Positions 7,632 to 19,324 of a stretch of 64,000 bases of DNA are shown in pieces; positions within the stretch are counted from its first letter, which is position 1, and each line of letters starts with the position of its first letter. Location: the sequence record OL631481.1; one strand, 5' to 3'. Source of the DNA: Escherichia phage ECML-183-2. Below the pieces are notes generated by a model. It was not told the DNA's origin and did no database searches. It saw only the letters and a program-made list of their open reading frames with translations. The position numbers and the translations under genes are program-made.

Positions 7632-7853
7632 CTACTCCGCAAGAACCTTCACTTCGTCAGAGAAGAATACGTAATCACAACCTTCCCAAACATCTTCTTC
7701 AAACCACTCCCATCCCTCGACTTTGGACATTTCTTCTATCGTAACAAAGAATGTTGTCATATCCTCACTAACAAGATGTGCTTCAACAACAAAAGGAATC
7801 TGAACATTCTCAAAACCAACATAACCCAATACATCACAAACTCTAATTTTCAT
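7632..7853 (-). CDS. paralog family C protein (73 aa)
   Basis: shares W.WFEEDV.EG.DYVFF motif with 11967-12188. Confidence 0.45.
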   Translation of the reverse strand: MKIRVCDVLGYVGFENVQIPFVVEAHLVSEDMTTFFVTIEEMSKVEGWEWFEEDVWEGCDYVFFSDEVKVLAE

Positions 7854-7854
7854 A

Positions 7855-8043
7855 TTATGCTCCTCTGTAGATTATGTTGGTGCGTTCACACTCTGCTACC
7901 AGCAAGCGATTAGCAATGTTATCCATAGGAACATCAATCTCTACACTCCAGGCATTGATACACACTTCTTCAATCTTTGCTCCCAACGTTTGTGCGATCA
8001 GAGCAACAGCCCCAGCATATTCAAGTTTAATCTCAATTACCAT
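7855..8043 (-). CDS. hypothetical protein (62 aa)
   Basis: start moved to ATG with GAGGTG RBS. Confidence 0.4.
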   Translation of the reverse strand: MVIEIKLEYAGAVALIAQTLGAKIEEVCINAWSVEIDVPMDNIANRLLVAECERTNIIYRGA

Positions 8044-8057
8044 TTTGCACCTCAAGG

Positions 8058-8288
8058 TTATTTGTCTTGCTTGTATCTTACAAGGCGATCACACTCCAGG
8101 TCAAGAAATTTCTCCGCATTTCGTTCATGTTTGAGCACAATACATTGTTCTTTCCAGTCTGTAGCTCTTTGCTGCGCTGCTCCTGGGTCAAAATCCCAAA
8201 GCCATGCCGCGAAAAGAACAACTACCCAAAGCCATACCGCGAAAAGAACAACTATAACAATTACTAAGAAACTAAACACTATTGGCAT
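8058..8288 (-). CDS. small membrane protein with internal tandem repeat
   Basis: hydrophobic; AGGAGG RBS before ATG 8288; contains about 30-bp tandem duplication. Confidence 0.4.
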   Translation of the reverse strand: MPIVFSFLVIVIVVLFAVWLWVVVLFAAWLWDFDPGAAQQRATDWKEQCIVLKHERNAEKFLDLECDRLVRYKQDK

Positions 8289-8593
8289 TGCACATCCTCC
8301 TGTGTAGCATGATCTTTTACCCATTTTATACGGGCAGCATTCAAATGCAATAGCCCGTTTCTTTGTGCAAAATCATATTTAAACCAGTCTCCGTCATCAA
8401 ACGGGTATTCTTCAGACAACCCTGCTTCTCGAAATTGCATTTGCATTTCATAATTTAGATCATCGTAACCACCAGTCCAAAGGTAGAGGCAACTGCACAA
8501 ACCTTTATCGTGCCAGAAAGGATTATTATCTGGAGCACCAGCTAACAGCCAATTATGATAGGCTTGATAAAATTCTTTAAGTTCTTCTGACAT
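8279..8593 (-). CDS. paralog family A protein
   Basis: AGGGGGT RBS; motifs FY..Y..WL.AGAP, GLC, PFD, WVKD. Confidence 0.5.
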   Translation of the reverse strand: MSEELKEFYQAYHNWLLAGAPDNNPFWHDKGLCSCLYLWTGGYDDLNYEMQMQFREAGLSEEYPFDDGDWFKYDFAQRNGLLHLNAARIKWVKDHATQEDVQCQ

Positions 8594-8770
8594 TTAACCC
8601 CCTGTGTACAGTGTTGAAAGATACACAGCAAAAGCATTCTCGGCTGTTTTAACCTCCTCTTCAAGATCTTCACGCTCTGTTGGCGTTAGCGCATTTCGCA
8701 CAGCAGCGTCTGCTTCTCGGATTTTTCTTACTAAACGTGAAACATCTTTCAGTTGTTGAAAAGTAGCCAT
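8594..8770 (-). CDS. hypothetical protein (58 aa)
   Basis: start moved to ATG after AAAGGAGG RBS. Confidence 0.4.
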   Translation of the reverse strand: MATFQQLKDVSRLVRKIREADAAVRNALTPTEREDLEEEVKTAENAFAVYLSTLYTGG

Positions 8771-8783
8771 AATCTTCCTCCTT

Positions 8784-9017
8784 TTAGTCAAACCAGTTGT
8801 ATTCGGAAGGGTAACGAGCGTAGTTTGGCTTGTACCCCAGTCTTTTCATCTTAACAGACATACGAGTGAAGCCAAAGGTTGTTTTGCCCTTAGACATAAA
8901 CTTCTTCCCACTCTTCATTGGCTTCTTAGGGTTTTTGATCGTCTGGTGTAACGCTCGCGCAAGCCACAGAGTGTATGCGCTCGGCACTTGATTAACTTTC
9001 ATCTTGTTACCTTTCAT
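8784..9017 (-). CDS. small basic protein (77 aa)
   Basis: start moved to ATG after AAGGAGG RBS; K/R-rich. Confidence 0.4.
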   Translation of the reverse strand: MKGNKMKVNQVPSAYTLWLARALHQTIKNPKKPMKSGKKFMSKGKTTFGFTRMSVKMKRLGYKPNYARYPSEYNWFD

Positions 9018-9027
9018 CGAAACCTCC

Positions 9028-9237
9028 TTAGTGAACTTCGTGCCAAGTGCCAAACTCTTCTGCTGATACTTTAGGAACGGCATGAGTTTCTCGATATTTG
9101 TTTAAAGCTTTCTCAATGGCTGTAGCAAAAACATCTTGTGATTTATAAGGCATATAATAAGAGCGTCCCATGTATGCCACTGCATCACGTAATTCTTCTG
9201 CTTGCTCTTGTGTAACTGTCAATGTGATAGTAACCAT
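9028..9237 (-). CDS. hypothetical protein (69 aa)
   Basis: start moved to ATG after GGAGGTG RBS. Confidence 0.4.
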   Translation of the reverse strand: MVTITLTVTQEQAEELRDAVAYMGRSYYMPYKSQDVFATAIEKALNKYRETHAVPKVSAEEFGTWHEVH

Positions 9238-9536
9238 TATTTCACCTCCGACCAATCAATAGTGATCCACTCGTATGCCCCGTTCAGATCCATTTCTTTA
9301 TAAACAATAAGCCCACGCTCACGAAGAATTGCTACTGCTTCATCCATCCACTTCACCTGATTGTAGATCGCCCCTGGGTGGGTAGGGGAATTATCTAGAC
9401 CAAAATCAGATGGCGTGAAATTTCTTGAAGAGTTTCCCGCTCGTGCTTCAGCAAAACATGTCTCGATCACTTCTTCAACAGGGAAGTTGAAGGAAGCTTC
9501 TTTTGCAATACGGCGTAACTGTTCAGTCAGATTCAT
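9237..9536 (-). CDS. hypothetical protein (99 aa)
   Basis: ORF with AAAGGAGA RBS. Confidence 0.45.
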   Translation of the reverse strand: MNLTEQLRRIAKEASFNFPVEEVIETCFAEARAGNSSRNFTPSDFGLDNSPTHPGAIYNQVKWMDEAVAILRERGLIVYKEMDLNGAYEWITIDWSEVK

Positions 9537-9563
9537 CTTATTCTCCTTTCGTTGTGTGAAACA

Positions 9564-10001
9564 TTACAGCAGATCTAATGCTTTCAACTCTTCTTTCAAT
9601 GATTCAGGCAGGTCACATTCAATGTCAATCAGAGATAACAAGTGACCAACAATGCCTTCCAGATGTTGATACTCACTATAACTTATAAATTCAGAATTGT
9701 AAACAGAAACATCCTTAGTTTCTTTCACAACTTCCCCCGCAGACACACACATAAAAAAGTTACGCTCTCCGCGAGCTAACAATATCTCCCAACTCCTGAA
9801 CGGATACTGTCCAGCTTCAATAATATCTCCGCTGTCCAATAAAGTCAATGAGCAAACAGACCCTGATTCACTAACATCTTCGACGCGGAAACAAGACCCT
9901 TCAATCAAAGCTGCCATTTTGAAATTTTCATCAGAAATCATAGAGAAAGCTTCACATGCAGCTTTGCTTTTGAAACAGTAAACAGCATTAACTTTGAACA
10001 T
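9564..10001 (-). CDS. paralog family B protein (145 aa)
   Basis: N-terminus MFKV..Y.FKS shared with 10011-10796 and 10809-11264; AAGGAG RBS. Confidence 0.5.
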   Translation of the reverse strand: MFKVNAVYCFKSKAACEAFSMISDENFKMAALIEGSCFRVEDVSESGSVCSLTLLDSGDIIEAGQYPFRSWEILLARGERNFFMCVSAGEVVKETKDVSVYNSEFISYSEYQHLEGIVGHLLSLIDIECDLPESLKEELKALDLL

Positions 10002-10010
10002 AATAGCTCC

Positions 10011-10796
10011 TTATTTTATTACCGCAGTAGGCTCAATACTAACAACACCAATACGCTCATAGATCTCAACAGTAGAAATTGGATATTCTTCCTTCATCTT
10101 TTTTGCTTCCGTGGCGATCTCTTCATAAGAATGTGACACCAATTGGACATTCATGCCTTTAACAATAGCATAGTGTTTAAAATTCGCTGCGGATTCCTCT
10201 TGTTTAGGCTCAACAACATCTTTAATATTTTTAAAATAAGGGTTATCGCTTTTGATTAGCAGTGCACAAGCTTCCTTGAACCAGCCTTCACCTGCTACAT
10301 GATTTGTATTACATACAAGCCTACGGATTGCTGTTACATCTTGTCCAACCATCTTTGTGATCACGAAAGGATCATCGCCAATAAGATCGGAAATTTTTCG
10401 GTTTACATTGTTTGTCGTTTGTCCTCCGTCAATATAATTGGCGAAAAGCTTACGATCTTGTTCACTTGCAAACTTATAGACACCACCTTCTACAAAGACA
10501 CAGCCTCCTGTAGGAGAATCTTCATAATCTTCAGGAGTATGTTCTTCAAAACGAGCATAATCCATACAACTTACAAGCTTATAACCTTCAGGGAAAAGCC
10601 CAGAACCAGCTTCGATGATTTTATTTGTGTCTAATACCTTCACCTTAGATACAGAACCAAGAAAATCAACATCCAAAACTTTAAACTTGCTATCTTGAAT
10701 GCAACCTACAAAGAAAGCGTTACCAATACTAGCTTTACCAAAATTCTTTTTGGTATCTTCCGATTTGAAATTATAAATAAAACCTACTTTAAACAT
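10011..10796 (-). CDS. paralog family B protein (261 aa)
   Basis: MFKVGFIYNFKSED N-terminus and IIEAG motif shared with family members; AAGGGG RBS. Confidence 0.5.
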   Translation of the reverse strand: MFKVGFIYNFKSEDTKKNFGKASIGNAFFVGCIQDSKFKVLDVDFLGSVSKVKVLDTNKIIEAGSGLFPEGYKLVSCMDYARFEEHTPEDYEDSPTGGCVFVEGGVYKFASEQDRKLFANYIDGGQTTNNVNRKISDLIGDDPFVITKMVGQDVTAIRRLVCNTNHVAGEGWFKEACALLIKSDNPYFKNIKDVVEPKQEESAANFKHYAIVKGMNVQLVSHSYEEIATEAKKMKEEYPISTVEIYERIGVVSIEPTAVIK

Positions 10797-10808
10797 AACA
10801 TTCCCCTT

Positions 10809-11264
10809 TTAAACAAAAGATACGCCGATGGTAGCAACAACCATACGTTTATAAACTTCAACCTCTTCTGTAGGATTAGCCATTTTATGCTCTGCTGCTT
10901 CTTTCAAAGCTTCTTCATAACTTTCAAATCCAGAAATACAGGTGTCATCAGTCATTACAACATACCACTCTTCTTTTGTTGTATCAACAGGTTCTTCTTG
11001 GGGTTTTCCACGACCACCACGAACACCACCGTCAACAAAATAATCTATATGAGCAGAATTGATTATGTAACGATCCCCATCACTAGCAGTGATAATACCG
11101 TCTCTCCCTATCACAACAATTGACAAGATATTACCATTTGCATCAGTGCTCAACACCTCGAAAAAATTCTCTCCAATGATAGCAGCAATACTGTTATCAA
11201 AGGTAGAATATAATCGCATATAGTCTTCATCCTGGAAACGGTAGACATGACCTTCTTTAAACAT
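10809..11264 (-). CDS. paralog family B protein (151 aa)
   Basis: MFKEGHVYRFQDED N-terminus; AGGAGGAGAG RBS. Confidence 0.5.
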   Translation of the reverse strand: MFKEGHVYRFQDEDYMRLYSTFDNSIAAIIGENFFEVLSTDANGNILSIVVIGRDGIITASDGDRYIINSAHIDYFVDGGVRGGRGKPQEEPVDTTKEEWYVVMTDDTCISGFESYEEALKEAAEHKMANPTEEVEVYKRMVVATIGVSFV

Positions 11265-11718
11265 TGCTCTCTCCTCCTAGTTCATCATACCATTTCAAAG
11301 CGTCTTTTGGAAGCATACCAAAATCTTCTTTTAGTTCTTTTTCAATCTCTTCTTGCATTTCCATCAGCATTTTCAATTGACGAACTTTTTTGTGCATAGC
11401 CACATTTCTTTCATTAAGATTTGTCACTACATTATTTGCACGACTTGGTGGAAATGACAAAGGTTTCACGGGAAGATAATCTTCAATATTATCTAGTGCG
11501 TTACGAAAATTATGATCCAAGAAACGCACATCTACACGATTGTAATCGGCAGCTACAACAGTGAACACTTTAAACGGCACATTGGATAAAGTATGTTGCA
11601 CACAGACAGTACCCATATTACCTTCAATTTTACTGGTAACTTCCAGCAAACCTGTATGAGCACTAACATAATCGTGAACACATTGCACATAAGCTGCCAG
11701 TATAGTGAATTGTCTCAT
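11257..11718 (-). CDS. hypothetical protein (153 aa)
   Basis: ORF with GGGGAGG RBS. Confidence 0.5.
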   Translation of the reverse strand: MRQFTILAAYVQCVHDYVSAHTGLLEVTSKIEGNMGTVCVQHTLSNVPFKVFTVVAADYNRVDVRFLDHNFRNALDNIEDYLPVKPLSFPPSRANNVVTNLNERNVAMHKKVRQLKMLMEMQEEIEKELKEDFGMLPKDALKWYDELGGESNV

Positions 11719-11963
11719 TTTCTACCTCCCCATAATGCTAACATTTTATTGAAAATGGAAACGCGTCGTGCGCGAGATGCCATATCATAATTCATTCTTT
11801 CCGTCTCTGCAAGAAATTGATCTACGGTAATCAACGCTTCTGTCTTCTCTTTCAGAGTTTGCATATTCATCCATTCACATTCAGAGTACCAATTATCGAA
11901 ATACAAACTATCAAGAAGATCCATTGCTGCTTCATTCTGTTGTGGTGTGATCATTGCACACAA
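11715..11963 (-). CDS. hypothetical protein (82 aa)
   Basis: ORF overlapping neighbours by 4 nt. Confidence 0.45.
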   Translation of the reverse strand: MCAMITPQQNEAAMDLLDSLYFDNWYSECEWMNMQTLKEKTEALITVDQFLAETERMNYDMASRARRVSIFNKMLALWGGRK

Positions 11964-11966
11964 CCC

Positions 11967-12188
11967 TTAATAGACAATTTCATATTCGTGAGGAAAGAAA
12001 ACATAATCTTCCCCTTCTCGTGCATCTATCTCGTCCCAAAACCATTCCTGCACTTCCATCATCTTCGAGAATCGCACATGAGCAAGCCCACTGTATTCCA
12101 CAGTAGCTTCCAACACAAGTGGAAATTTTGCATGGACAAGTCCTTTATAACCACCATCATTCTCAATACGAATTTTCATGCGTTTCAT
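11967..12188 (-). CDS. paralog family C protein
   Basis: W.WF..E.D..EGEDYVFF motif shared with 7632-7853; start position approximate. Confidence 0.4.
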   Translation of the reverse strand: MKRMKIRIENDGGYKGLVHAKFPLVLEATVEYSGLAHVRFSKMMEVQEWFWDEIDAREGEDYVFFPHEYEIVY

Positions 12189-12189
12189 G

Positions 12190-12399
12190 TTATGCATCCT
12201 TCAGACCCTTAATAAAGTAACGACCAACCGGATTCCCTCGGAAGTATTCGTTAATGAAATCGATAACACACGTTTCACTGCCTGTCACAACGGACGGCTT
12301 AAAGTTTTGGAATTCTACAGCTACACGGCTGGCTTTAGCCAGTGCTTGCACACGTGTAGGATCAGTCAAGAACATTGTGACAGTTTTCAAATTCTTCAT
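12190..12399 (-). CDS. hypothetical protein (69 aa)
   Basis: ORF with GAGGAGA RBS. Confidence 0.45.
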   Translation of the reverse strand: MKNLKTVTMFLTDPTRVQALAKASRVAVEFQNFKPSVVTGSETCVIDFINEYFRGNPVGRYFIKGLKDA

Positions 12400-12448
12400 T
12401 TCATCTCCTCATTGGCTATCTGTTATGTCGTCCATTATACAAACATCT

Positions 12449-12787
12449 TTATTCAATGCAAGCATTATTTGCATCTTCAATGCGATCTTTCACCCACTGA
12501 AGACGTAACTCGTTGGTATGACACGCTAAACCTATGCACTCTGAAAGGTAATCCATGCAATCTGCATTAAACGGGAAATTGTAATCTAGTCCTGCACCAA
12601 TAAACTGGGATTTCATCTCTTGTTGTAGACGAGGTAACAGTTCATCAGGGTATGTTCCCTCTACATACTTAATCAAACATATGCACAAACCACTCGTTGT
12701 GTGACCTTCTACCTCACCAGCAAGCCAAGCTTTGTAAAACTTCATTAGACGTAAACTACTTAACGGAACATTTTTACTCTCTTGCAT
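12449..12787 (-). CDS. paralog family A protein
   Basis: GAGGAG RBS; motifs FYKAWL, GLC.CL, FPFN, WVKDR. Confidence 0.5.
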   Translation of the reverse strand: MQESKNVPLSSLRLMKFYKAWLAGEVEGHTTSGLCICLIKYVEGTYPDELLPRLQQEMKSQFIGAGLDYNFPFNADCMDYLSECIGLACHTNELRLQWVKDRIEDANNACIE

Positions 12788-13130
12788 GACAATCTCCTCT
12801 CATCGTTAGCCATCTTTCATGGCAATCATCAATCACCAACATCATACGATCAATCTTAAGGAATTACAATCGAATTATCATAGGGGATTCCTATCAATTA
12901 TCCCATATATACCGATTATTTTTGACACCCCATTCTTGTATAAAAAGTAACCCAAAATATCCACGGGGAGAGATTATTTCGACACACCCTGTTTCATGGC
13001 AATCATGGCAAGAATATCTAATAGAATCAATATCATATGGCAAAAATCATGGCGCATACGTAAGAAGTGCTTAACGCGAATTTTCGGGCCGTCAGGTCCA
13101 CGCAGCGACAATTCCCAAATATCATGCGAA

Positions 13131-13149
13131 TGAGAATAATTATCATTCG
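13131..13149. promoter_or_regulatory. Fur-box-like palindromic site
   Basis: GAGAATAATTATCATTCGT, 12 of 19 matches to GATAATGATAATCATTATC. Confidence 0.25.
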
Positions 13150-13310
13150 TATTCAATGACTTATGCAAGGCTCATGCCAACATAGCGACAAGGTGGGCCA
13201 CCTGATTATAAATCACACAAACACTTATTTATCAATGGTTTGGCAACTTCATCATATGACGGAACAATGTCAACTAATCCCGCTCATGACAGACGGACTA
13301 TTATTTATAT

Positions 13311-13329
13311 GAGAATGATTATTATTTAA
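13311..13329. promoter_or_regulatory. Fur-box-like palindromic site
   Basis: GAGAATGATTATTATTTAA. Confidence 0.25.
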
Positions 13330-14363
13330 ACGTTTATTAACATATAAACTAAAATAAATCAAGAATTTTCTGATTTTATTTACGTTTAAGAGAAGGTGCT
13401 CAACATCCTACCGGATCGCCGTTGGCAATCCTCGGATATTTACGCCCCCATGATTAAGGTTTATCTCTTTTATAGCTCAACATTCCCGCCTGTGGCGGTA
13501 ACATTTCGCCCCCAAAATTATTGACTTTTATTCTATTATGTGCATAGTGTGCAATGTATCGGAATGATGATAATCATCCTCCCATTGCCCCCATAATTAT
13601 TGCCATGCTAATTGTTTCATTACGTAATTATTACAATGACTATTGTTATTGCGCTAATGTTATGATCTTGGTAATTACATATAATGCTAATAATAAGCCA
13701 GCGCAATAAGTGTAAGCGTCATTACGCTTGCAATTATTGCAAGCTACGCAGTAACAAGAAATAACCATCACCGATGGTTATGATTGTTGGGGTGTAGTTG
13801 GCTTATTATTAGCTCGCTATGTGTCCGGCATAGCGTGCTAATGATGACTCTGTGAATGATTCGTTTTGTAATGATTTCATTCAGGCACTATTTTGCTAAT
13901 AGTTATTATTTTAATGGTTTCGTTTGTTATTGTTCGTTAGTTGGTTGTTTTGTCGTGTTATCGTTATTTTGCTTAGTATTTATCATGGTTTGATTGTTTG
14001 TCGTTATCAATCATCTTGCTATTATTCCTTTGATTATGATTAGTTTGCTTATTGTTTTATGTTGTTTGTTGGTTAGTTGTTGCGAACTATTATCAACATT
14101 ATAATTATGCGCTTATATTGCATAGATAATCATGGGTAGATGATAATGGTTATCATTGCACTAGAAAGGAGGTAAAAGGGTGTTTTTGATGGTTTGTTGT
14201 TGGTTGTTGATCGATTTTAACCGCTCTAAATAGCTCTCTAACAGCCTGTTGCCCTGGGATGTATGGTTATTCGTTTAATGGTCGATTAGCTCGATACCGT
14301 GATTTATTCAGTTTTGTTCTGTGTCGGTTTTTCATAGGCGAAAGCTATCAACATTGTTCGGGC

Positions 14364-14390
14364 AAAAAGAAAGGGCGCTTTGTGCGCCCT
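14364..14390 (-). terminator. rho-independent terminator closing the minus-strand array
   Basis: hairpin AGGGCGC-tttgt-GCGCCCT followed on the minus strand by TTTCTTTTT. Confidence 0.55.
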
Positions 14391-14405
14391 GGTATGAAAT
14401 GTTAT

Positions 14406-14788
14406 TTACTGATAAGCTGGATCGTTTGTTATATCAATCCAATGAGATAAATTAATTTTATTTTTTGCTTTCATTTTCTCGATCAAACGTTCGGCTAATG
14501 TCTCGGAACGAATATAAACGTTTTCGCTAAAATCTTGCCCCGTTTCTTCGTCGATCATCTCACGATATTCGATTTTTCCGATAAACGCGTGATTCAGCGC
14601 ATAAGTTTTACCCGTGTACCAGTTATGCAAATGGATCTCACATTTATAATCATCGCTATACCCTTCGGTTGTTCTAACTTCAACCAGGTCGCCTTTAAAC
14701 ACTGATAAGCACCACATAGGATCACGGTCTACAGCGCCGTTAAAGTCTTTACCGTTTACAGTCGCTGCCAGGTTGATGATATTGCTCA
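14406..14788 (-). CDS. hypothetical protein (127 aa)
   Basis: start set at ATG downstream of promoter 14822-14864; GAGG RBS. Confidence 0.5.
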
Positions 14789-14821
14789 TGGTGATTCCTC
14801 GTTTACCGTTTAAAATGATTT

Positions 14822-14864
14822 GCCCTACGTGATAAATAATAATGCAAGCGTGATCCGGTGTCAA
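14822..14864 (-). promoter_or_regulatory. early promoter cassette (variant without GC hairpin)
   Basis: minus strand TTGACA-N17-TATTAT then conserved ttatcACGTAGGGC leader. Confidence 0.55.
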
Positions 14865-15038
14865 TAGGTAAAATTGTAAAGATTTGATAGTTTGTTCCTT
14901 TGATGTTTTGTTGTTTGATAGGCGTTAGTTATCAATATATAGCGGGGTCTTCCGGTGATTATCTTCCCCTGCTCCCAGGTGCCGCCCGTTCAATAAGTAT
15001 AACAAAAAATAGGACTATTGCAAGCCCTATTTATTATC

Positions 15039-15173
15039 TTAAAACCAGGTGCCAACCGTTTCCAATAGGTCACTGACTACAAGGACAACACTGATCAGCA
15101 CATGTTCAACCATGAAAGGGATAAGCGCCAGCGTTGCTACTACGATCCCCATTGTGATGATTACCTTTCTCAT
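15039..15173 (-). CDS. small hydrophobic peptide (44 aa)
   Basis: ATGA start/stop overlap with upstream gene; hand-translated, two hydrophobic segments. Confidence 0.3.
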   Translation of the reverse strand: MRKVIITMGIVVATLALIPFMVEHVLISVVLVVSDLLETVGTWF

Positions 15174-15460
15174 TGTTGGCGGTTTACGTAAGCTTTACCG
15201 TTTACGGTCATCGGTATGGCCTCAAGGTCTGGATCTTCCTTAAGGTCGCGTGCAAGCTCACCGCAGCGGATACCCTCGAATCCGTAGTACTCTGTTGTGC
15301 CGTCCTGGAAAGTTTTAGCGGCAAGGCATAGGCGATAATTAACGCCGATCCGGTTTATTGCGTTGATATCGGTTAGCGTGATGGATTCTGGCAACTCATT
15401 AGCCAGTACAGGCGCGTTAATACCAACAACCAGGGCAACTACTGCGATCATCTTTTTCAT
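15170..15460 (-). CDS. secreted protein with signal peptide (96 aa)
   Basis: MKKMIAVVALVVGINAPVLA N-terminus. Confidence 0.5.
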   Translation of the reverse strand: MKKMIAVVALVVGINAPVLANELPESITLTDINAINRIGVNYRLCLAAKTFQDGTTEYYGFEGIRCGELARDLKEDPDLEAIPMTVNGKAYVNRQQ

Positions 15461-15514
15461 GCGTCTATCCTCTTCCTATTGCGTTTAATGGGGCGTTACC
15501 GCCCCGCTTATGGT

Positions 15515-15751
15515 TTATTGATTGATGTTATGATGAAAGTTATTTTCTTCAATAGCTTTTAAAATAAAAGCCGTGATCGCTTTCGTGTCTACTTGTTCGA
15601 ACGTATCAGAATAAGCCCAATAATAATCATCCCCTACTTTCGGCGGGTAAACCTGGACAAGGAGATCGCCACCTGGTTGATCTATAAGCTCAACATGTAA
15701 GCCGGATGATTCAGCGGTTTTAACGGCGTTTAATACTGTTGCAATACTCAT
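15515..15751 (-). CDS. hypothetical protein (78 aa)
   Basis: AAAGGAAAAG RBS; preceded by GC hairpin. Confidence 0.5.
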   Translation of the reverse strand: MSIATVLNAVKTAESSGLHVELIDQPGGDLLVQVYPPKVGDDYYWAYSDTFEQVDTKAITAFILKAIEENNFHHNINQ

Positions 15752-15795
15752 AATCTTTTCCTTTCTGATGTGGGGCGTTGCCGCCCCTTTGTTGA

Positions 15796-16095
15796 TTAGA
15801 TCGCTGTTTCCAGTAGTTCGGCTAACGTCTTACCGCCTGATAGTTGGTCTAACGTTTGCTCTTCTGGCAAGAAATTAGCTGATATTAATCCGACTTGATT
15901 TCCTTTGTGCCAATTAGCTTGACGGATGATTCCATCCTTTAAAGATTTTACCGCCATTGTGCAACCGTCGCCAAATGATTCATTTTTATGATCCATTACT
16001 TCATAAGCGCCCAGCTTGCTGCTGTTAGGCACCATTAACGCGAATACATCACCAACAACCAGCTTTTCTACGGTAACAATAGCGATAGTTTCCAT
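15796..16095 (-). CDS. hypothetical protein (99 aa)
   Basis: first gene downstream of cassette 16115-16170. Confidence 0.5.
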   Translation of the reverse strand: METIAIVTVEKLVVGDVFALMVPNSSKLGAYEVMDHKNESFGDGCTMAVKSLKDGIIRQANWHKGNQVGLISANFLPEEQTLDQLSGGKTLAELLETAI

Positions 16096-16114
16096 TTTAC
16101 TTTCCTCATTATCG

Positions 16115-16170
16115 GCGGCACCATTGCCGCCCTACGCATTAAATATAAGTTATCTAAGAGATTAGATCAA
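16115..16170 (-). promoter_or_regulatory. promoter plus leader-hairpin cassette
   Basis: minus strand TTGATC-N16-TTATAT, leader GCGTAGGG and hairpin GCGGCAATGGTGCCGC. Confidence 0.55.
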
Positions 16171-16173
16171 GGA

Positions 16174-16365
16174 TTATTTTGTAAAGATTACAGCTTCATC
16201 AAAATTTTCAACATAGTAAGCAAGCTCTTCATTTGCTGCAACCATTCCTAAAAGTTGGCTATAAGATAAACCTTTGATCCCTTCCTCGTTGTTTAATGCT
16301 TCGATGATTTCATCAACGGGCGCAAAAAACATGTTATTCGATTCCAGGTAGGAGATGGTTTTCAT
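16174..16365 (-). CDS. hypothetical protein (63 aa)
   Basis: downstream of cassette 16387-16442. Confidence 0.5.
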   Translation of the reverse strand: MKTISYLESNNMFFAPVDEIIEALNNEEGIKGLSYSQLLGMVAANEELAYYVENFDEAVIFTK

Positions 16366-16386
16366 AATGTTTACCTTTTTCGGGGA

Positions 16387-16442
16387 GCGGCACCATTGCC
16401 GCCCTACGTGGTAAATATTAGCACACTGGCGATCTGTGTCAA
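16387..16442 (-). promoter_or_regulatory. promoter plus leader-hairpin cassette
   Basis: TTGACA-N16-TAATAT, ttaccACGTAGGG, hairpin GCGGCAATGGTGCCGC. Confidence 0.6.
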
Positions 16443-16448
16443 TACTTT

Positions 16449-16835
16449 TTATTCAATATAAATCAAATTATCTTCACCAATGTAAGCCGACACGTTCGGC
16501 ATAAACTTAGCTGCATTGGTTAGGCGGTTCGCCGTGTTAGTGGTGTATATTTCAGGGCGATCCCAAAAGCCTACGCCGTGACCGTTACGGGTAAAATGTA
16601 AATCATTCCCGATCTGGTTGGCTGTTGCGCCGTCGCTCATTGCCTCAGAGATAGCGGCAAGATTAGCATTAATAAAGGCTGTTACATCCTGGGCGATCCG
16701 TTGATGGGCTTGATCTGAAAAATCATAATCAGTCATGTCATCTATAAAATTACCTTCATGATCCCTTGCGGATTCAGCAAAAATAAAGGCTTCTTTATAA
16801 CCGTTGATGATTTCAATAATGATTTCTGTTTTCAT
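16449..16835 (-). CDS. hypothetical protein (128 aa)
   Basis: ATGA-coupled to upstream ORF. Confidence 0.5.
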   Translation of the reverse strand: MKTEIIIEIINGYKEAFIFAESARDHEGNFIDDMTDYDFSDQAHQRIAQDVTAFINANLAAISEAMSDGATANQIGNDLHFTRNGHGVGFWDRPEIYTTNTANRLTNAAKFMPNVSAYIGEDNLIYIE

Positions 16836-17056
16836 GCTGTACGCTCGACAATAATAATAGTTTGCGGGATCTCGTTTTCTACTACTAACAAGGCTTTTTT
16901 CTGTGTGATAGATATTTTAACACGTTGTAAAGTAGCGGTGAAATCTTTCATTTCATTATGCGCGGACTTCGTGCAATGCCAGATCTCAGGCTTACCAACT
17001 TGTAAGCCGCGTAAAAATTCCGTTTTGCCTGTTTTGTTCGTGATCATTTGTTTCAC
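16832..17056 (-). CDS. hypothetical protein (74 aa)
   Basis: AAGGTGA RBS. Confidence 0.5.
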   Translation of the reverse strand: MKQMITNKTGKTEFLRGLQVGKPEIWHCTKSAHNEMKDFTATLQRVKISITQKKALLVVENEIPQTIIIVERTA

Positions 17057-17057
17057 C

Positions 17058-17162
17058 TTAACCGATACCGTGGGAAGATAGGATCATGTTAGCCATAGTT
17101 GCAACCACTCCAACCGATAACGCCAGGCCCACTATTACAACCGTGAAAATTTTCTCTAACAT
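17058..17162 (-). CDS. small hydrophobic peptide (34 aa)
   Basis: track ORF trimmed to ATG downstream of the cassette; GAGGG RBS. Confidence 0.35.
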   Translation of the reverse strand: MLEKIFTVVIVGLALSVGVVATMANMILSSHGIG

Positions 17163-17180
17163 GATTCTACCCTCATTAAT

Positions 17181-17242
17181 GGGCGTTGCACCATTGCCCC
17201 GCCCTACGTAATACACTTTACCAGATAACAAATTATTGTCAA
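17181..17242 (-). promoter_or_regulatory. promoter plus leader-hairpin cassette
   Basis: TTGACA-N16-TAAAGT, ACGTAGGG, GC hairpin. Confidence 0.55.
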
Positions 17243-17306
17243 GGTTTATTTTACTTCCCAAACGGAAAATTCACTGCGTGGCGGGAAGTATTCCCCGCCT
17301 TATTAA

Positions 17307-17477
17307 TTACTCTTCATCGTCGCCGTTATAGTATTCAATGCCGTTTTCATCGGTTACGGTGATGTTAACGCCACCGATAGCAACACGATCACGGGCAAAC
17401 GTCATAGCTTCATTTAAATCTTCAGACCAAAAAATATTGTGACCTTTGCGCGATACATAAAACATAGTCGGGATCAT
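17307..17477 (-). CDS. hypothetical protein (56 aa)
   Basis: track ORF trimmed to ATG (MIPTMF) downstream of hairpin. Confidence 0.45.
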   Translation of the reverse strand: MIPTMFYVSRKGHNIFWSEDLNEAMTFARDRVAIGGVNITVTDENGIEYYNGDDEE

Positions 17478-17499
17478 GATTTGTTTCTCTTCTGTTGTG

Positions 17500-17561
17500 A
17501 GCGGTGGACCATTCCGCCGCCCTATGTGGTAAACTTTACTACGTTGTTTGCCTGTTGTCAA
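17500..17561 (-). promoter_or_regulatory. promoter plus leader-hairpin cassette
   Basis: TTGACA-N17-TAAAGT, ttaccACATAGGG, hairpin GGCGGCGGAATGGTCCACCGC. Confidence 0.6.
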
Positions 17562-17562
17562 A

Positions 17563-17847
17563 TTATTTTTTAATGTTTTGCCCTACAAAATTGATCACTT
17601 CCTTAAGCTGTCTCTCTGTCATGATCGTACCTGGTAACTCTTCTTTAATTTCTTCCGGTAAATAGATATTACCGCGCCAGGTTAACAAACAACCGTTTTG
17701 ATCTTCGCAGATAGAATAAGAAAACATCCACTCGCAATCATTTTCAAGCTCCCAAAAACACAAAAAGTCTTCTTTCCCTAAGTTTTCAACGGTTAAACAT
17801 AATCCGCGACGTGCTGCATAATTAGTCAGGCTTTTTGTGATTTTCAT
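17563..17847 (-). CDS. hypothetical Cys-rich protein (94 aa)
   Basis: track ORF trimmed to ATG (MKITKS) downstream of hairpin. Confidence 0.5.
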   Translation of the reverse strand: MKITKSLTNYAARRGLCLTVENLGKEDFLCFWELENDCEWMFSYSICEDQNGCLLTWRGNIYLPEEIKEELPGTIMTERQLKEVINFVGQNIKK

Positions 17848-17869
17848 GATTTTTCTCTCTTCTTGTGAG

Positions 17870-17924
17870 CGGCACCATTGCCGCCCTACAAGATACATAT
17901 TATCAGACTAGGCGGACTTGTCAA
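17870..17924 (-). promoter_or_regulatory. promoter plus leader-hairpin cassette
   Basis: TTGACA-N16-TAATAT, hairpin GCGGCAATGGTGCCGC. Confidence 0.6.
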
Positions 17925-17925
17925 A

Positions 17926-18036
17926 CTATTTTTTCTTTTTCTTTGCTTCCAACCGTCTAAGGTTACGGCTTGACTTATTTCGCAAGGCGCTTAGATCGTC
18001 GTACCCTTTCCATGCTTGCATATCTTTCGGATTCAT
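17926..18036 (-). CDS. small basic protein (36 aa)
   Basis: hand-translated MNPKDMQAWKGYDD...; AAGGGG RBS. Confidence 0.3.
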   Translation of the reverse strand: MNPKDMQAWKGYDDLSALRNKSSRNLRRLEAKKKKK

Positions 18037-18045
18037 GTTATCCCC

Positions 18046-18207
18046 TTACTTGTTAGCCGGATCATATACCAGGACCGCGCCGCTTGCTTTCACGCTTTCC
18101 GCTTCATAGTTGCGCAGATCGTTTTCTGTAAGGTTGAGCGCGATCACTTCCTCGATCTCAACGTCAGCGGCAAGGGCGATCTCTTTGATAATGTCTGTTG
18201 TTTTCAT
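18046..18207 (-). CDS. small protein (53 aa)
   Basis: hand-translated MKTTDIIKEIALAADVE...; AAGGTG RBS. Confidence 0.35.
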   Translation of the reverse strand: MKTTDIIKEIALAADVEIEEVIALNLTENDLRNYEAESVKASGAVLVYDPANK

Positions 18208-18217
18208 AGTACGCACC

Positions 18218-18337
18218 TTATAAGATGATTGATAAGATAGTGATAACGAAAGCGATTATACTGATGGCAAATGTCATCTTTTTACCTTCGGATACTGCCG
18301 GATTTTCTACCGTGTATTCTACTGTGTACTTGCTCAT
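18218..18337 (-). CDS. small membrane-anchored peptide (39 aa)
   Basis: hand-translated; GAGAGG RBS; C-terminal hydrophobic helix. Confidence 0.3.
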   Translation of the reverse strand: MSKYTVEYTVENPAVSEGKKMTFAISIIAFVITILSIIL

Positions 18338-18360
18338 CGTGTAATCCTCTCGTTTGCTTT

Positions 18361-18418
18361 GGGAACTATTCCCGCCGCCTTATGAATTAAATATACACTA
18401 TCTCAAAATGATTGCAAG
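18361..18418 (-). promoter_or_regulatory. promoter plus leader-hairpin cassette
   Basis: TTGCAA-N16-TATATT, hairpin GGCGGCGGGAATAGTTCCC. Confidence 0.5.
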
Positions 18419-18434
18419 CCTTTTTCTAAATTAT

Positions 18435-18719
18435 TTATGCAGTAAACAAACCATCATTTACAACGGCGGCGATGATCTCCCGTGCCATTGATTCAGGGAA
18501 AGGGGCGCTATAGTCCTGGCTTGTCTCATCGGTATCAGTGATCCAATGATAAGCTAACGAGTAAAAGCCTTTACTAACTGTTTTCAGTGAGATGATGATC
18601 ACTCGGTCAAGCTTATTGGTGAATGTTGCCGTTAATGTGTTACCCTCCTGCGTCATGTTGGACAAGTAAGCGGGATCATTAATCAGGGAAAACATTAGCA
18701 CGGTGTTAGCTTTACTCAT
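18435..18719 (-). CDS. hypothetical protein (94 aa)
   Basis: track ORF trimmed to ATG (MSKANTV) downstream of hairpin. Confidence 0.5.
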   Translation of the reverse strand: MSKANTVLMFSLINDPAYLSNMTQEGNTLTATFTNKLDRVIIISLKTVSKGFYSLAYHWITDTDETSQDYSAPFPESMAREIIAAVVNDGLFTA

Positions 18720-18737
18720 GATTGCATCCTCAAAGGG

Positions 18738-18794
18738 GCGCGGCACCATTGCCGCCCTACACGATAACTATAACACAATGTAAAACAGGATCAA
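18738..18794 (-). promoter_or_regulatory. promoter plus leader-hairpin cassette
   Basis: TTGATC-N16-TATAGT, hairpin GCGGCAATGGTGCCGC. Confidence 0.55.
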
Positions 18795-18997
18795 CCTTTA
18801 TTTTTCCACGGTGTCAGCTTGTTAATCATTGGTGATAAATAGCGTTTACCAACGTAAAACAGTACGCCAACTGATGCAACGGCGGCGATCTCATGTAAGG
18901 AGGAAGGTCGCGCGGTGTCATAATAGGTACCAATAATAGCAATAGCGGCTACTGCGGCAATGTCTGTAATAATTTTTTCTTGTTTTGCGGTGATCAT
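18791..18997 (-). CDS. small membrane protein (68 aa)
   Basis: track ORF trimmed to ATG (MITAKQ); two hydrophobic segments. Confidence 0.45.
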   Translation of the reverse strand: MITAKQEKIITDIAAVAAIAIIGTYYDTARPSSLHEIAAVASVGVLFYVGKRYLSPMINKLTPWKNKG

Positions 18998-19019
18998 AAT
19001 ATTTACCTTTTTGTATGGT

Positions 19020-19078
19020 GGGGGAACTATTCCCCGCCTGATGTAATACAGTTTAACAGGTCCGGTTATGGTGTCAAC
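19020..19078 (-). promoter_or_regulatory. promoter plus leader-hairpin cassette
   Basis: TTGACA-N16-TAAACT, hairpin GGCGGGGAATAGTTCCCC. Confidence 0.55.
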
Positions 19079-19083
19079 CACTT

Positions 19084-19269
19084 TTAAAGATATTTTATAT
19101 TGATAACGTTTTCAGGTTTAACCTTGTTGTGATGTGCATCAACATAGATCAAACCATCGTCAGAAAAGCCCAGGATCACGCCCTGCGCAATAAAACCGTA
19201 TTCGTCACGGTAACGCACGGCTATTTTTAACGTTGCGTTGTAGGCTGTTTTAAGCTCGTTTAAAGTCAT
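19084..19269 (-). CDS. hypothetical protein (61 aa)
   Basis: AGAGGA RBS. Confidence 0.45.
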   Translation of the reverse strand: MTLNELKTAYNATLKIAVRYRDEYGFIAQGVILGFSDDGLIYVDAHHNKVKPENVINIKYL

Positions 19270-19290
19270 TTTTGTTTATCCTCTACATGT

Positions 19291-19318
19291 AAAAAGAAAG
19301 GGCGCTTGGTGCGCCCTT
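19291..19318 (-). terminator. intra-array terminator or attenuator hairpin
   Basis: hairpin AAGGGCGC-accaa-GCGCCCTT followed by TTTCTTTTT on the minus strand. Confidence 0.4.
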
Positions 19319-19324
19319 GTTATG

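Follow-up and report, generated by a model that had tools for sequence, protein, structure and literature searches.

The concatemer junction of phage T7 combines a 160-bp terminal repeat with short-repeat arrays, pac sequences, a hairpin-forming site and the early promoters A1-A3. In phage T5, the inner edge of the ~10-kb terminal repeat is marked by an injection-stop or non-coding repeat region, in which DnaA boxes are said to be present, while phi29 encodes beside its genome end the 174-nt packaging RNA (pRNA), phages of this type having protein-primed ends without a terminal repeat. Few therapeutic coliphages are isolated as often, or used as much, as those of the phAPEC8 and phi92 types. 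To our knowledge, nothing is known of how their DNA ends are recognised, replicated and first expressed, and we know of no two-step DNA transfer in this phage group.

The window analysed here, the whole 64-kb stretch of DNA from Escherichia phage ECML-183-2 (OL631481.1), comes from a Phapecoctavirus, a phAPEC8-like myophage of the subfamily Stephanstirmvirinae, and its top matches were Phapecoctavirus genomes at 94-98% identity. Positions 12788-14405 are free of open reading frames (ORFs), the genes on both flanks all lie on the minus strand, and the same gene-free stretch was present in all relatives examined. An earlier note, made from the letters of the window, had seen no credible ORF here and had named a conserved protein gene found by homology as the result that would speak against it. 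Pfam searches of the stretch gave no match at cut-off, the curated RefSeq records of relatives carry no annotated feature at the homologous place, and each ORF of at least 36 aa, with one exception, was broken by a stop or frameshift in at least one aligned relative; no such gene was found, and the claim was borne out. The exception, a 39-codon ORF at 13924-14043 with a TTG start, is open in four phages and lies inside the invariant tract described below, with no ribosome-binding site upstream. It could be supposed that small hidden protein genes fill the stretch, as annotated in the GenBank records ETEC-TG and WPEC1; some records place six to eight 'hypothetical proteins' here, and the 39-codon ORF is uninterrupted. 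However, the remaining ORFs are interrupted in relatives, Pfam scores stay below cut-off, RefSeq is empty, and the sequence of the 39-codon ORF, which has neither an ATG start nor a ribosome-binding site, is invariant regardless, so that we consider hidden genes extremely improbable. The stretch is without a conserved gene, and small 'hypothetical proteins' should be left unannotated here in assemblies. There are no tRNA or tmRNA genes within the 64-kb window, and Chi sites and DnaA boxes are absent from the stretch. One neighbouring gene is T4 gp30.8-like, and was unusable as a guide to the equivalent locus in rV5-type phages, being too widespread.

Comparison with the sequences of relatives indicates that the stretch is very probably a chromosome-end control region, seen here in collapsed form as the concatemer junction, and that the phage packages DNA of unit length ending in short direct terminal repeats. 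Schickermooser carries an exact 329-bp repeat at its record ends and Mt1B1_P17 an exact 328-bp one, both mapping to 13072/13073-13400; at least six further records terminate at the identical base, and the RefSeq record of phi92 has an annotated 343-bp DTR-L and DTR-R at the homologous place. The same sequence thus stands at both ends of the Schickermooser, Mt1B1_P17 and phi92 records, as in T7-type direct terminal repeats (DTRs). The ends of the present genome are placed through relatives, rather than through the isolate's own reads, because the window holds one collapsed copy of the repeat. The 329-base repeat itself was already known from relatives, with a published length of 328 bp (PMC6563267) and, in BME3, a 342-bp repeat assigned as a DTR by PhageTerm (PMC12210895). 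The termini are fixed and non-permuted, as judged from independent records with the same end base, from the PhageTerm assignment in BME3 and from the borders. In phi92 these read GGTGCT/TAAC and TAGGCT/CAAC (the slash marking the cut). At the left border the Schickermooser and phi92 records end exactly after GCT, and the motif is conserved in all genera; at the right border the Schickermooser and Mt1B1_P17 repeats end at GCT, and phi92 DTR-R and the VEcB record at GCT/CAAC. Both borders are one motif, (G)GTGCT/YAAC, of which GCT/YAAC is shared across three genera, and the two copies are 329-344 bp apart in six lineages. The virion ends of relatives map to 13071/13072 and 13400/13401, which agrees with the proposal in the earlier note of a packaging or genome-terminus-proximal region. 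The analysis places the genome ends of the window via relatives and proposes a terminase cut motif; in practice, assemblies of these phages are best opened at 13072 (GCT/TAAC).

In such a scheme, terminase would cut concatemers at the two border motifs and the repeat would be regenerated via fill-in synthesis, as in T7-type phages. Going by gene orientation only, cell entry would be led by the 13400 end, behind which the order would be the repeat, leftward early promoters (12915-13002) and small early genes. On the left arm, Justusliebigvirus retains the island 12859-12931, and Paula too has the motif pair. Coordinates of all features are collected in Table 1.

Table 1. Sequence features at the genome-end region of the window (positions are those of the 64-kb window; a slash within a motif marks the presumed terminase cut).
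Feature	Position	Strand	Remarks
Left arm, untranslated leader from repeat to first leftward gene	12788-13071	-	Gene presumed early, ATG at 12787
Motif GATTATTT(T/C)GACAC(A)CCC, two copies	12914-12931, 12972-12989	-	Each gives an AATAAT -10-like hexamer on the minus strand
Promoter-like TTGCCA-18-AATAAT	13002-12973	-	10/12 matches; putative promoter
Left border motif GAAGTGCT/TAAC	13064-13075		Presumed terminase cut 13071/13072
Direct terminal repeat (DTR)	13072-13400		329 bp; single copy in collapsed assembly; expected at both chromosome ends in virion DNA
Fur-like box S1, core TGAGAATAATTATCA at 13131-13145	13124-13152		29-bp palindrome; 59 nt from left end of repeat
Fur-like box S2, TGAGAATGATTATTA	13310-13324		Two mismatches; 76 nt from right end of repeat
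Imperfect inverted repeat, 21-nt arms	13345-13388		From repeat search; just within right border
Right border motif GAAGGTGCT/CAAC	13392-13404		Presumed terminase cut 13400/13401
Two tandem units	13398-13449, 13475-13513	+	GCTCAACAT, short G+C hairpin, T-rich stretch, CGCCCCC
Weak sigma-70-like site TTGACT-16-CATAGT	13521-13548	+	9/12 matches; candidate promoter toward folded element
Folded element, ~150 nt, five helices	13686-13835	+	Covariation; antisense to all neighbouring genes
Helix P1	13686-13699 / 13800-13813	+	In folded element
Helix P2	13703-13718 / 13725-13740	+	In folded element
Helix P3	13742-13749 / 13792-13799	+	In folded element
Helix P4	13761-13769 / 13773-13781	+	In folded element
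Helix P5	13815-13822 / 13828-13835	+	In folded element
G+T-rich, C-poor unstructured tract	13850-14135	+	T ~55%, G ~20%, C ~8%
Operator-like cluster	14083-14155		Degenerate Fur-like half-site, palindrome and box S4
Degenerate Fur-like half-site	14083-14097		In operator-like cluster
Palindrome TATGCG-N7-TGCATA	14105-14125		In operator-like cluster
Fur-like box S4, TGATAATGGTTATCA	14141-14155		One mismatch; invariant in four-phage alignment
Shine-Dalgarno-like GAAAGGAGG and 17-codon GTG ORF	14165-14233	+	SD-like 14165-14173, GTG 14180; no conserved gene
Non-coding block ...GATTAGCTCGATACCGYGATTTATTCA...AAAGCTATCA...	14284-14371		Conserved across genera
Intrinsic terminator AGGGCGC-ACAAA-GCGCCCT then TTCTTTTT	14372-14390	-	Ends leftward operon arriving from the right

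The inverted repeat inside the right border forms a block conserved in the four-phage alignment and in Paula. The first tandem unit begins at the right cut site, and additional cut-site-like units occur on the flanks of the repeat. A two-copy element bounded by GCTCAACAT and CGCCCCC had already been noticed; it is indeed present twice, as a duplicated unit that starts with the right cut-site motif. The hairpin of the second unit is clear (CCCGCC-TGT-GGCGG, 13485-13498). Copy number in relatives ranges from 1 to 3, the hairpin sequence varying from unit to unit with pairing kept, and in phiWec190 and phi1_175008 the hairpin and T-run of the unit scored as plus-strand terminator-like. At the candidate rightward promoter, TTGAC(A/T) was found at the equivalent place in anhysbys, Paula and arall, with no clear conservation in Justusliebigvirus; promoter-like (sigma-70) sites in the relatives showed no excess over shuffles.

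The locus also contains, beside the repeat, a strongly conserved and previously undescribed five-helix element, in which compensatory changes keep the base pairs intact on the plus strand and on that strand only. Among 13 phages from four lineages, 15 of its 53 pairs showed compensatory changes and 99.9% of cells were paired, a value reached by none of 500 shuffles, while slid controls gave 23-52%. The 66 G·U cells of the plus strand become 66 mismatches if the element is read on the minus strand, and the predicted folding energy was -76.8 kcal/mol (z -7.9) on the plus strand against -60.9 kcal/mol on the minus strand, a difference of 16 kcal/mol. The closing helix is long-range and of 14 bp, and four G·T positions are invariant. 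Pairing of the P1 3' arm with 13837-13847 instead was considered and rejected, a compensatory change in arall favouring P1. The element lies 285-435 nt from the right cut site, in an orientation relative to that site that is fixed in all genera; ten further contigs of ~150-kb-type phages also carry it, and further metagenome variants keep the pairing. It occurs once, with no second copy in the 64-kb window. Rfam gave no family match in 12000-15000, the sole hit at E up to 1 being a chance snoRNA (22.9 bits vs a gathering threshold of 90), and no credible match in 24200-25700. BLAST, a covariance model and motif searches in collections of viral, metagenome and genome sequences found no homologues outside the subfamily; five pattern matches in bacterial genomes were judged to be chance. 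A terminator scan found none on the plus strand downstream of the element, nor any between element and tract, and the literature yielded nothing relevant in the way of published transcriptomes for this subfamily.

Compensatory substitutions and strand specificity are the marks of a structured RNA, the latter fitting single-stranded DNA equally well. The plus-strand signal, G·U in RNA and G·T in DNA, fits RNA and single-stranded DNA alike, and the comparative evidence gives good support to the element as a candidate new motif of RNA or of single-stranded DNA. The earlier suggestion that the minus strand might yield a non-coding RNA, A/C-rich and unstructured, found no support as stated, the sole element with evolutionary single-strand evidence folding on the plus strand.

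Adjoining the folded element is the G+T-rich, C-poor tract. Extreme G+T skew had been claimed for 13560-14240; it is real, 13891-14090 having 75.5% G+T (z ~5), but narrower than supposed, with a skewed core at ~13850-14100, weaker skew onward to ~14330 and only 50-58% G+T at 13560-13850. A skew continuing genome-wide had been named as a result that would speak against the note; the skew is local, this being the top 200-nt value in the 64-kb window and likewise over all 149 kb of the genome of 536P1, a close relative. Another G+T-rich stretch of the window, at 45.7-47.7 kb, is coding. The 'short reiterated motifs' dissolved into low-complexity composition without a periodic repeat: TTGTT occurs 11 times, no period-3 or period-10.5 signal was detected, and a tandem-repeat or iteron array was rejected, the tract being aperiodic and its direct-repeat families 68-74% identical and irregularly spaced. 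Its folding was not in excess of expectation (z -0.1). The homologous tract in other genera (Justusliebigvirus, Klebsiella relatives) is made up of A, T and G with 3-8% C; what is common to the genera is depletion of C on the plus strand and not richness in G+T, the proportions of A, T and G varying by genus.

The tract is 93-97% identical to that of the phiWec phages, and 13700-14400 as a whole is 84-97% identical to phiWec190 and phiWec179, against ~40-88% for the flanking genes (40-88% in the comparison made for the tract). In these alignments constraint is stronger on the right-hand 0.7 kb than on the genes around it, and the DNA beside the repeat is the most constrained sequence of the neighbourhood. 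Justusliebigvirus has the block at 14284-14371 at 82-86% identity, amid DNA that cannot be aligned. Within 14040-14400, secondary structure amounted to the terminator and an invariant palindrome, with no convincing covariation. The terminator was found by terminator scan, is invariant in all genera and is annotated in Schickermooser and Paula. A tiny ORF with a ribosome-binding site had been described at this edge, and it exists, but it is not conserved and was rejected as a gene: phiWec190 and phiWec179 have none of its start codons, and the 27-codon ORF that Paula carries at this place is unrelated.

Fur-box-like palindromes had also been noticed, and these proved non-random, with positions conserved across genera. 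The consensus in Enterobacteriaceae is the 19-bp GATAATGATAATCATTATC, or TGATAATNATTATCA in 7-1-7 form (PMC11353095). A scan with the 7-1-7 pattern TGATAATNATTATCA, allowing up to two mismatches, found six sites in the 64-kb window vs 0.70 expected, none of 100 shuffles reaching six. Three matches lie inside the ORF-free stretch (13131, 13310 and 14141), and an additional site at 13563 lacks conservation in relatives. The whole genome of a relative gave 10 sites vs 1.73 expected, six of the 10 in two non-coding loci. Mismatches to the motif number one in S1, S4 and a box at 25023, and two in S2 and a box at 25081, so that the five conserved sites match 12-13 of 14 specified positions; S1 agrees with the 19-bp box at 15 of 19 positions. 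The S1 15-mer is identical in phiWec190, Paula and arall. S2 is an invariant island between diverged flanks in the four-phage alignment, with equivalents in all genera, the arall site being a perfect 7-1-7 match. The box, palindrome and box layout at 14083-14155 is kept in all genera, the Paula boxes being 58 bp apart.

From their sequence, the Fur-like boxes are putative operators, probably for host Fur, two of them in the repeat and a pair near 14083-14155, and they would couple genome-end transcription to iron status or titrate Fur as phage DNA multiplies. It is possible, though we think it the lesser prospect, that the palindromes are not Fur sites and that the likeness is coincidental, the boxes being operators for a phage-encoded protein or promoter elements (GATAAT resembling a -10). 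The left half-site is always TGAGAAT rather than TGATAAT, several boxes coincide with predicted -10-like hexamers, the boxes are confined to two non-coding loci of the genome, as expected of a dedicated phage regulator, and in a Klebsiella relative one of the adjacent early genes is annotated as an AsnC-type HTH gene. However, well-studied Fur sites, that of the aerobactin promoter for one, contain GAGAAT hexamers too, no recognisable DNA-binding domain was found among the ten genes flanking the stretch in the window, and the extent of the matches to both forms of the consensus speaks for Fur. The five conserved sites agree with the Fur boxes of Enterobacteriaceae promoters at 12-13 of 14 specified positions, and the sites come in pairs in non-coding DNA; unlike those boxes, they belong to a strictly lytic phage, with two inside the terminal repeat, and are not upstream of iron genes. 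The literature on Fur boxes in phages concerned temperate-phage cargo operons, with none found for lytic phages, and no description was found of a link to iron status or of Fur titration by such a phage. If real, Fur-like operators in the terminal repeat of a lytic phage would link infection to host iron, or the phage would titrate Fur.

Taken as a unit, the right arm (13401-14371) may be a cis- or trans-acting non-coding module. The reading we favour, though tentatively and short of calling it probable, is that of a rightward-transcribed non-coding RNA, starting within 13514-13685, with 13686-13835 as its 5' domain and a C-avoiding, Rho-resistant tail of several hundred nt. Such an untranslated, C-poor tail would offer Rho no C-rich loading site, and avoidance of Rho loading would explain why the genera share C-depletion and not G+T richness. 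Against a plus-sense RNA, it would be antisense to every neighbouring gene, it has no clear terminator of its own, and its candidate promoter (13521-13548) is weak. The composition argument, moreover, cuts both ways: a plus strand poor in C means a minus strand poor in G, and this suits Rho loading on a minus-sense RNA as well. The tract could be an insulator, a Rho-loading pad on which leftward transcripts that run past the terminator at 14372-14390, being untranslated, G-poor and unstructured, would be released by Rho before the cut sites and the repeat, the folded element being unrelated to the adjoining tract. This would be the nearest workable form of the minus-strand RNA idea in the earlier note. 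Minus-sense transcription certainly arrives, all flanking genes being on the minus strand, the tract is directly downstream of the terminator of the leftward operon, minus-sense G is 8% here and 3-8% in other genera, C exceeds G, and the tract is unstructured. A minus-sense Rho utilisation site was taken to be at least ~80 nt of unstructured, G-poor, C-rich RNA past the last translated gene; minus-sense C, however, is ~20% here and 14-21% in Justusliebigvirus, which is not C-rich, and selection therefore looks like the removal of one base and not like C enrichment. Rho-loading sites are degenerate, yet the tract is nearly invariant between phages with far more divergent genes, and the plus-strand-specific fold beside it would be left unexplained. 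We regard an insulator as unlikely.

We give no greater weight to a cis-acting DNA function, also unlikely, in which the element would form in displaced or resected plus-strand DNA, or bind the small terminase subunit, and would mark the packaging start or prime repeat regeneration, the tract and GCTAAT repeats being sites of protein assembly. A hairpin intermediate near the T7 concatemer junction has been proposed to prime repeat regeneration. GCTAAT is enriched, with seven copies vs 1.1 expected, five of the seven on one strand and irregularly spaced. The constant placing of the element relative to the right cut site, the extra cut-site-like units flanking the repeat and the tolerance of G·T pairs in DNA hairpins too would all suit such a role, as would the T7-like polymerase and primase-helicase of rV5-type phages (PMC3606486). 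Five helices with a 14-bp long-range closure and four invariant G·T pairs would, however, be unusual for a transient DNA fold-back. A replication origin, listed among the candidates of the earlier note, seems quite improbable. It would consist of a promoter with a structured transcript, or a single-strand priming signal, beside an AT-rich unwinding tract, with GCTAAT as initiator sites. A+T makes up 70-73% of the tract here and 76-82% in Justusliebigvirus, vs 61% overall, GCTAAT is enriched as mentioned above, GC skew shifts from ~-0.2 on the left to ~-0.06 on the right despite minus-strand genes on both sides, and forks moving out to the right would have the plus strand as their lagging-strand template. 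A bacterial-type origin has DnaA boxes beside an AT-rich unwinding element, and of these the AT-rich tract alone is present: there is no TTWTNCACA, and the lone site with at most one mismatch is part of a Fur-like half-site. There is only one IHF-like site, no initiator gene was identified, and genome-wide skew follows gene orientation, the unusual part being the early-gene block and not the junction. Pyrimidine-rich RNA hybridises weakly with DNA, and a plus-sense RNA here would be pyrimidine-rich, which was counted against an origin.

Returning to the rightward non-coding RNA, a stronger version of it, which we consider doubtful, would make the right arm a new kind of phage long non-coding RNA (lncRNA), with a 150-nt five-helix domain and a nearly C-free tail, shielded from Rho and possibly Fur-switched via 14083-14155. 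The host small RNA GcvB binds C/A-rich translation enhancers through G/U-rich stretches; the lncRNA tail could act broadly on host mRNAs, because the Phapecoctavirus tail has GcvB-like G/U-rich runs. On another reading of the same evidence, which would be equally novel, the folded domain might work like the packaging RNA of phi29, in a myovirus that uses a terminase.

Set against the systems described at the outset, the folded element resembles phi29 pRNA in its several helices, its approximate size and its location some hundreds of bases from the end of a chromosome; it has no Rfam match to the pRNA family, however, and nothing ties it to the packaging motor. With T5 the locus shares a long run of gene-free DNA with many direct and inverted repeats at a terminal-repeat boundary, but not DnaA boxes. 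The repeats of phi92, Schickermooser and BME3 are at the homologous locus, in the 328-343 bp class, with the GCT/YAAC border and the same flanking genes. The published descriptions consulted, however, give the existence and length of the repeat only; neither they nor the record annotations mention a motif common to both borders, the folded element, the Fur-like boxes or the conservation of the right arm. As for T7, there is no sequence similarity, the phage here is a myovirus of ~150 kb with one motif at both borders, and the element far exceeds a simple hairpin in size; the absence of a phage RNA polymerase here rules out a processing signal coupled to transcription in the T7 manner. The layout is nevertheless alike: in both, a short terminal repeat is set within ~1-1.6 kb of gene-free DNA, host-type early promoters (putative here) point inward from just past one copy of the repeat, and reiterated or low-complexity sequence and foldable DNA lie beside the other, the T7-like polymerase and primase-helicase of rV5-type phages being a further likeness (PMC3606486).

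The ORF-free region 12788-14405 is best interpreted as a genome terminus. In a BLAST search of GenBank phages, 12700-14450 matched more than 100 records, the top matches (94-98% identity) being Phapecoctavirus, the phAPEC8-like E. coli myoviruses of about 150 kb in the subfamily Stephanstirmvirinae. Many independent GenBank records terminate inside the region at one shared base. The records of Schickermooser and Mt1B1_P17 end in exact repeats of 329 bp and 328 bp, respectively, which map to 13072/13073-13400; a terminal repeat of 328 bp has been described for Schickermooser (Korf et al., PMC6563267). At the homologous place the phi92 RefSeq record carries annotated left and right direct terminal repeats of 343 bp, the repeat of BME3 is 342 bp by PhageTerm (PMC12210895), and Stephanstirmvirinae genomes are stated in a later paper to end in direct terminal repeats (PMC12695924). 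Since the end repeats and record ends of the relatives map inside the region, the window represents the two ends in joined form, and the direct terminal repeat (DTR) is collapsed to one copy. The earlier observation was largely real, and one of its three guesses, a genome-terminus-proximal region, is the best reading. We regard it as firm that the phage has short terminal repeats of the T7 type and that the region is its concatemer junction. This identity is not new, both the repeat and its length having been documented in relatives. rV5-type phages also carry a T7-like polymerase and primase-helicase (PMC3606486). The end at 13400 would enter the cell first, which fits two candidate host-type promoters in the left flank directed into a run of small genes. 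Many records of the group are opened at arbitrary positions, not at the terminal repeat.

The homologous stretch is without annotation in RefSeq relatives, and in anhysbys it forms a gap of 1.6 kb flanked by two blocks of small minus-strand genes. The earlier note saw no credible ORF here, and an ORF check, comparison with relatives and Pfam agreed: every ORF of at least 36 aa is interrupted in at least one of three aligned relatives, except one of 39 codons with a TTG start in invariant sequence, and none of the region's matches reached the Pfam cut-off. No conserved protein gene was thus found. The tiny ORF with a strong Shine-Dalgarno-like sequence exists, but every start codon is lost in phiWec190 and phiWec179. 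Two to eight 'hypothetical proteins' are annotated in the homologous region of OR786310 (ETEC-TG), PV659873/PV691511 (WPEC1/WPEC2) and PP919962 (KP2025), and are probably over-annotation. The last gene before the right arm (13401-14371) is a homologue of T4 gp30.8 (Pfam PF06019, E 2e-28), a family present in about 1000 T4-like and other phage genomes; no domain was recognisable in the other nine flanking genes.

The region is gene-free over 1.6-2.0 kb in every relative examined (Phapecoctavirus, the phiWec group, Justusliebigvirus including phi92, and Klebsiella phages), and the order of its elements is identical in all relatives examined across the subfamily.

Features of the terminus region (numbered in their conserved order) and of a second gene-free region; a slash marks the border
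Feature	Position	Strand	Details
1. Leader			two GACAC(A)CCC / AATAAT motifs
2. Terminal repeat (DTR)	13072-13400
Left border, window			GAAGTGCT/TAAC
Right border, window			GAAGGTGCT/CAAC
Borders, phi92			GGTGCT/TAAC and TAGGCT/CAAC
Fur-like boxes S1, S2	13131-13145, 13310-13324		inside DTR
3. Cut-site units
4. Variable stretch			GCTAAT motifs
GCTAAT copies	13607-13895	plus
GCTAAT copies	13808, 14285	minus
5. Conserved block	13680-13855		contains folded element
Folded element	13686-13835	plus	P1 arms 13686-13699 (5') and 13800-13813 (3')
6. C-poor tract	~13850-14135	plus
7. Box / palindrome / box cluster
8. Conserved 90-nt block
9. Intrinsic terminator	14372-14390	minus	operon arriving from right
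T4 gp30.8 homologue	14406-14864	minus
Second gene-free region	24400-25560
Near-consensus promoter	~24762-24790		TTGACA-17-TATACT; G+C-rich foldable sequence after
Similar second promoter + foldable unit	~24930-25010
Fur-like boxes	25023-25037, 25081-25095		58 bp apart
7-3-7 palindrome	25109-25125		ATGAGAA-CTC-TTCTCAT
Four direct repeats	~25148-25345		ACTTTAAAT(T)TT

Compared with phiWec190 and phiWec179, 13700-14400 is 84-97% identical per 100 nt, whereas the flanking genes are about 40-88% and the repeat 55-79% identical. On these alignments the right arm is under strong constraint, and is the most constrained sequence in the neighbourhood. In 14040-14400 no supported structure was found beyond the terminator and an invariant TATGCA...TGCATA palindrome.

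The two repeat borders share a motif that is a putative terminase cutting site. The VEcB record ends at GCT/CAAC, and the two border motifs are spaced 329-344 bp apart in six lineages, Klebsiella phages included. The two copies of GCTCAACAT...CGCCCCC reported earlier are present, and represent a unit that opens with the right-border motif and continues with a short G+C hairpin, then a T-rich CGCC stretch. This cut-site unit occurs in one to three copies depending on the phage, with a hairpin of different sequence in every copy, and scores as terminator-like on the plus strand in two relatives. Weak copies of both border contexts lie at 14290-14355 and 12870-12897 (ACCGTGATTTATTC resembling AACGCGAATTTTC, and AAAGCTATCAACAT resembling AGGTGCTCAACAT), and may have survived from older borders or be chance likenesses. 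The left and right arms are also linked by a 28-nt match of 75% identity.

The main new result is the folded element on the plus strand. From an alignment of the conserved block in 13 phages of four lineages, RNAalifold predicted five helices (P1-P5) with 53 pairs, 15 of which have changed on both sides with pairing kept; standard pairs occupy 99.9% of alignment cells. None of 500 shuffles reached the alignment's own values for paired fraction, compensatory-pair count or covariation score, and sliding the 3' partners by 1-3 columns reduced pairing to 23-52%. A simple protein-binding palindrome is ruled out because P1, the 14-bp closing helix, pairs segments separated by 100 nt and covaries at four positions. 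All 66 G·U cells on the plus strand become A·C or C·A mismatches on the minus strand, and the folding energy is -76.8 kcal/mol (z -7.9) on the plus strand versus -60.9 kcal/mol on the minus strand. The element lies antisense to all the genes around it. It may act as RNA or as single-stranded DNA, the data fitting both.

A covariance model found the element once in the window. It also detected it in nine contigs from metagenomes and in another viral contig from IMG/VR, where P2 and P4 occur in new, compensated variants; the contigs long enough to judge are about 150 kb. The model found none in bacterial genomes, and the element matched no Rfam family. One GCTAAT copy forms the 5' arm of P1, and in Klebsiella relatives GCTAATAATACC occurs three times just upstream of the element, each time with a separate local partner for pairing. 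The 3' arm of P1 (13800-13813) has an alternative partner, 13837-13847, that would extend hairpin P5, making a two-state switch possible; a compensatory change in phage arall favours P1 over this pairing. P2 and P3 face competition from the invariant hairpin GCTTGCA-N5-TGCAAGC (13727-13745).

The G+T skew is real and a local maximum, but narrower than first described: G+T reaches 75.5% at 13891-14090 (z ~5), the maximum of the 64-kb window, and 13560-13850 is unskewed (50-58%). The homologous tract is the G+T maximum of the entire 149-kb genome of the close relative 536P1, and the skew is therefore local, not genome-wide. The short reiterated motifs do not form a repeat array, a reading rejected as the tract shows neither a period-3 nor a period-10.5 signal and only loose, irregular repeat families; it is low-complexity sequence, and lacks excess folding (z -0.1). 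Its homologue has a composition of A40/T40/G16/C4 in Justusliebigvirus and 4-11% C in Klebsiella phages. G+T richness is confined to one lineage, and the near-absence of plus-strand C is the property common to the genera. The tract belongs to a conserved non-coding module. The second most G+T-rich stretch of the window, 45700-47700 (up to 68% G+T, AT skew -0.22), was rejected as a second copy, being T-rich coding sequence covered by plus-strand ORFs. Left of the repeat (1-13000) the GC skew is about -0.2 and right of it (14400-31000) about -0.06, with minus-strand genes in both blocks, and no block of the whole 536P1 genome is more skewed than the one adjoining the left end; this difference could reflect early-gene composition or a replication effect.

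Quite possibly, though we propose it tentatively, the right arm specifies a rightward non-coding RNA, with the folded element as 5' domain and the C-poor tract as tail. The plus-strand fold, the lack of a terminator between element and tract, and the conservation between genera of C removal in particular argue for such an RNA; a convincing conserved promoter was not found. Because Rho prefers C-rich, G-poor RNA, removal of C suits an untranslated transcript, which would escape Rho through its tail. Alternatively, the tract could be a Rho-loading pad for minus-sense read-through, for which it is well placed and, on minus-sense RNA, G-poor; we consider this unlikely, as the tract is not C-rich and its sequence is too well conserved for a degenerate signal. 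A DNA-level role in packaging or end processing seems similarly doubtful, and a replication origin improbable: position fits both, as does GCTAAT (seven in the region versus 1.1 expected), but a search of the region found no DnaA boxes, and GC skew tracks gene orientation. The likelihoods we attach to these readings exceed unity in total because they are not mutually exclusive.

The E. coli Fur box is GATAATGATAATCATTATC or, alternatively, overlapping 7-1-7 repeats TGATAATNATTATCA (PMC11353095). Fur-box-like palindromes are present as the earlier note described, and the 7-1-7 pattern, with at most two mismatches, occurs six times in the window versus 0.70 expected. The 536P1 genome has ten versus 1.73 expected, six of them at two non-coding loci: the terminus region with four and the second gene-free region with two. 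S1 and S2 lie 59 nt and 76 nt from the repeat ends; three genera share an identical S1, and S2 forms an invariant island. A box pair flanks a conserved palindrome near 14083-14155, with a counterpart pair 58 bp apart in Paula; the Fur-like site at 13563 is not conserved. In sequence the boxes strongly resemble Fur sites and would be candidate sites for Fur binding, with a phage-encoded regulator in place of Fur as a live alternative. Cargo operons of temperate phages were the only place where our literature searches found Fur boxes.

The second gene-free region, which has no Rfam match, could be a small-RNA locus or an origin. In 536P1, the largest stretch without an ORF of at least 70 aa (2.5 kb, rotated coordinates 94109-96600) is presumably the cluster of 10-13 tRNAs reported for the group (PMC6563267); the 64-kb window contains no tRNA genes.

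In the literature and annotations examined, we found no earlier account of the border motif, the variable cut-site units, the conserved Fur-like boxes, the folded element or the right-arm constraint. By function, the closest analogues include the concatemer junction of T7 and the T5 repeat-boundary region, neither of them a sequence relative. The folded element is analogous to the phi29 packaging RNA by position and size only, and likewise not a relative in sequence.
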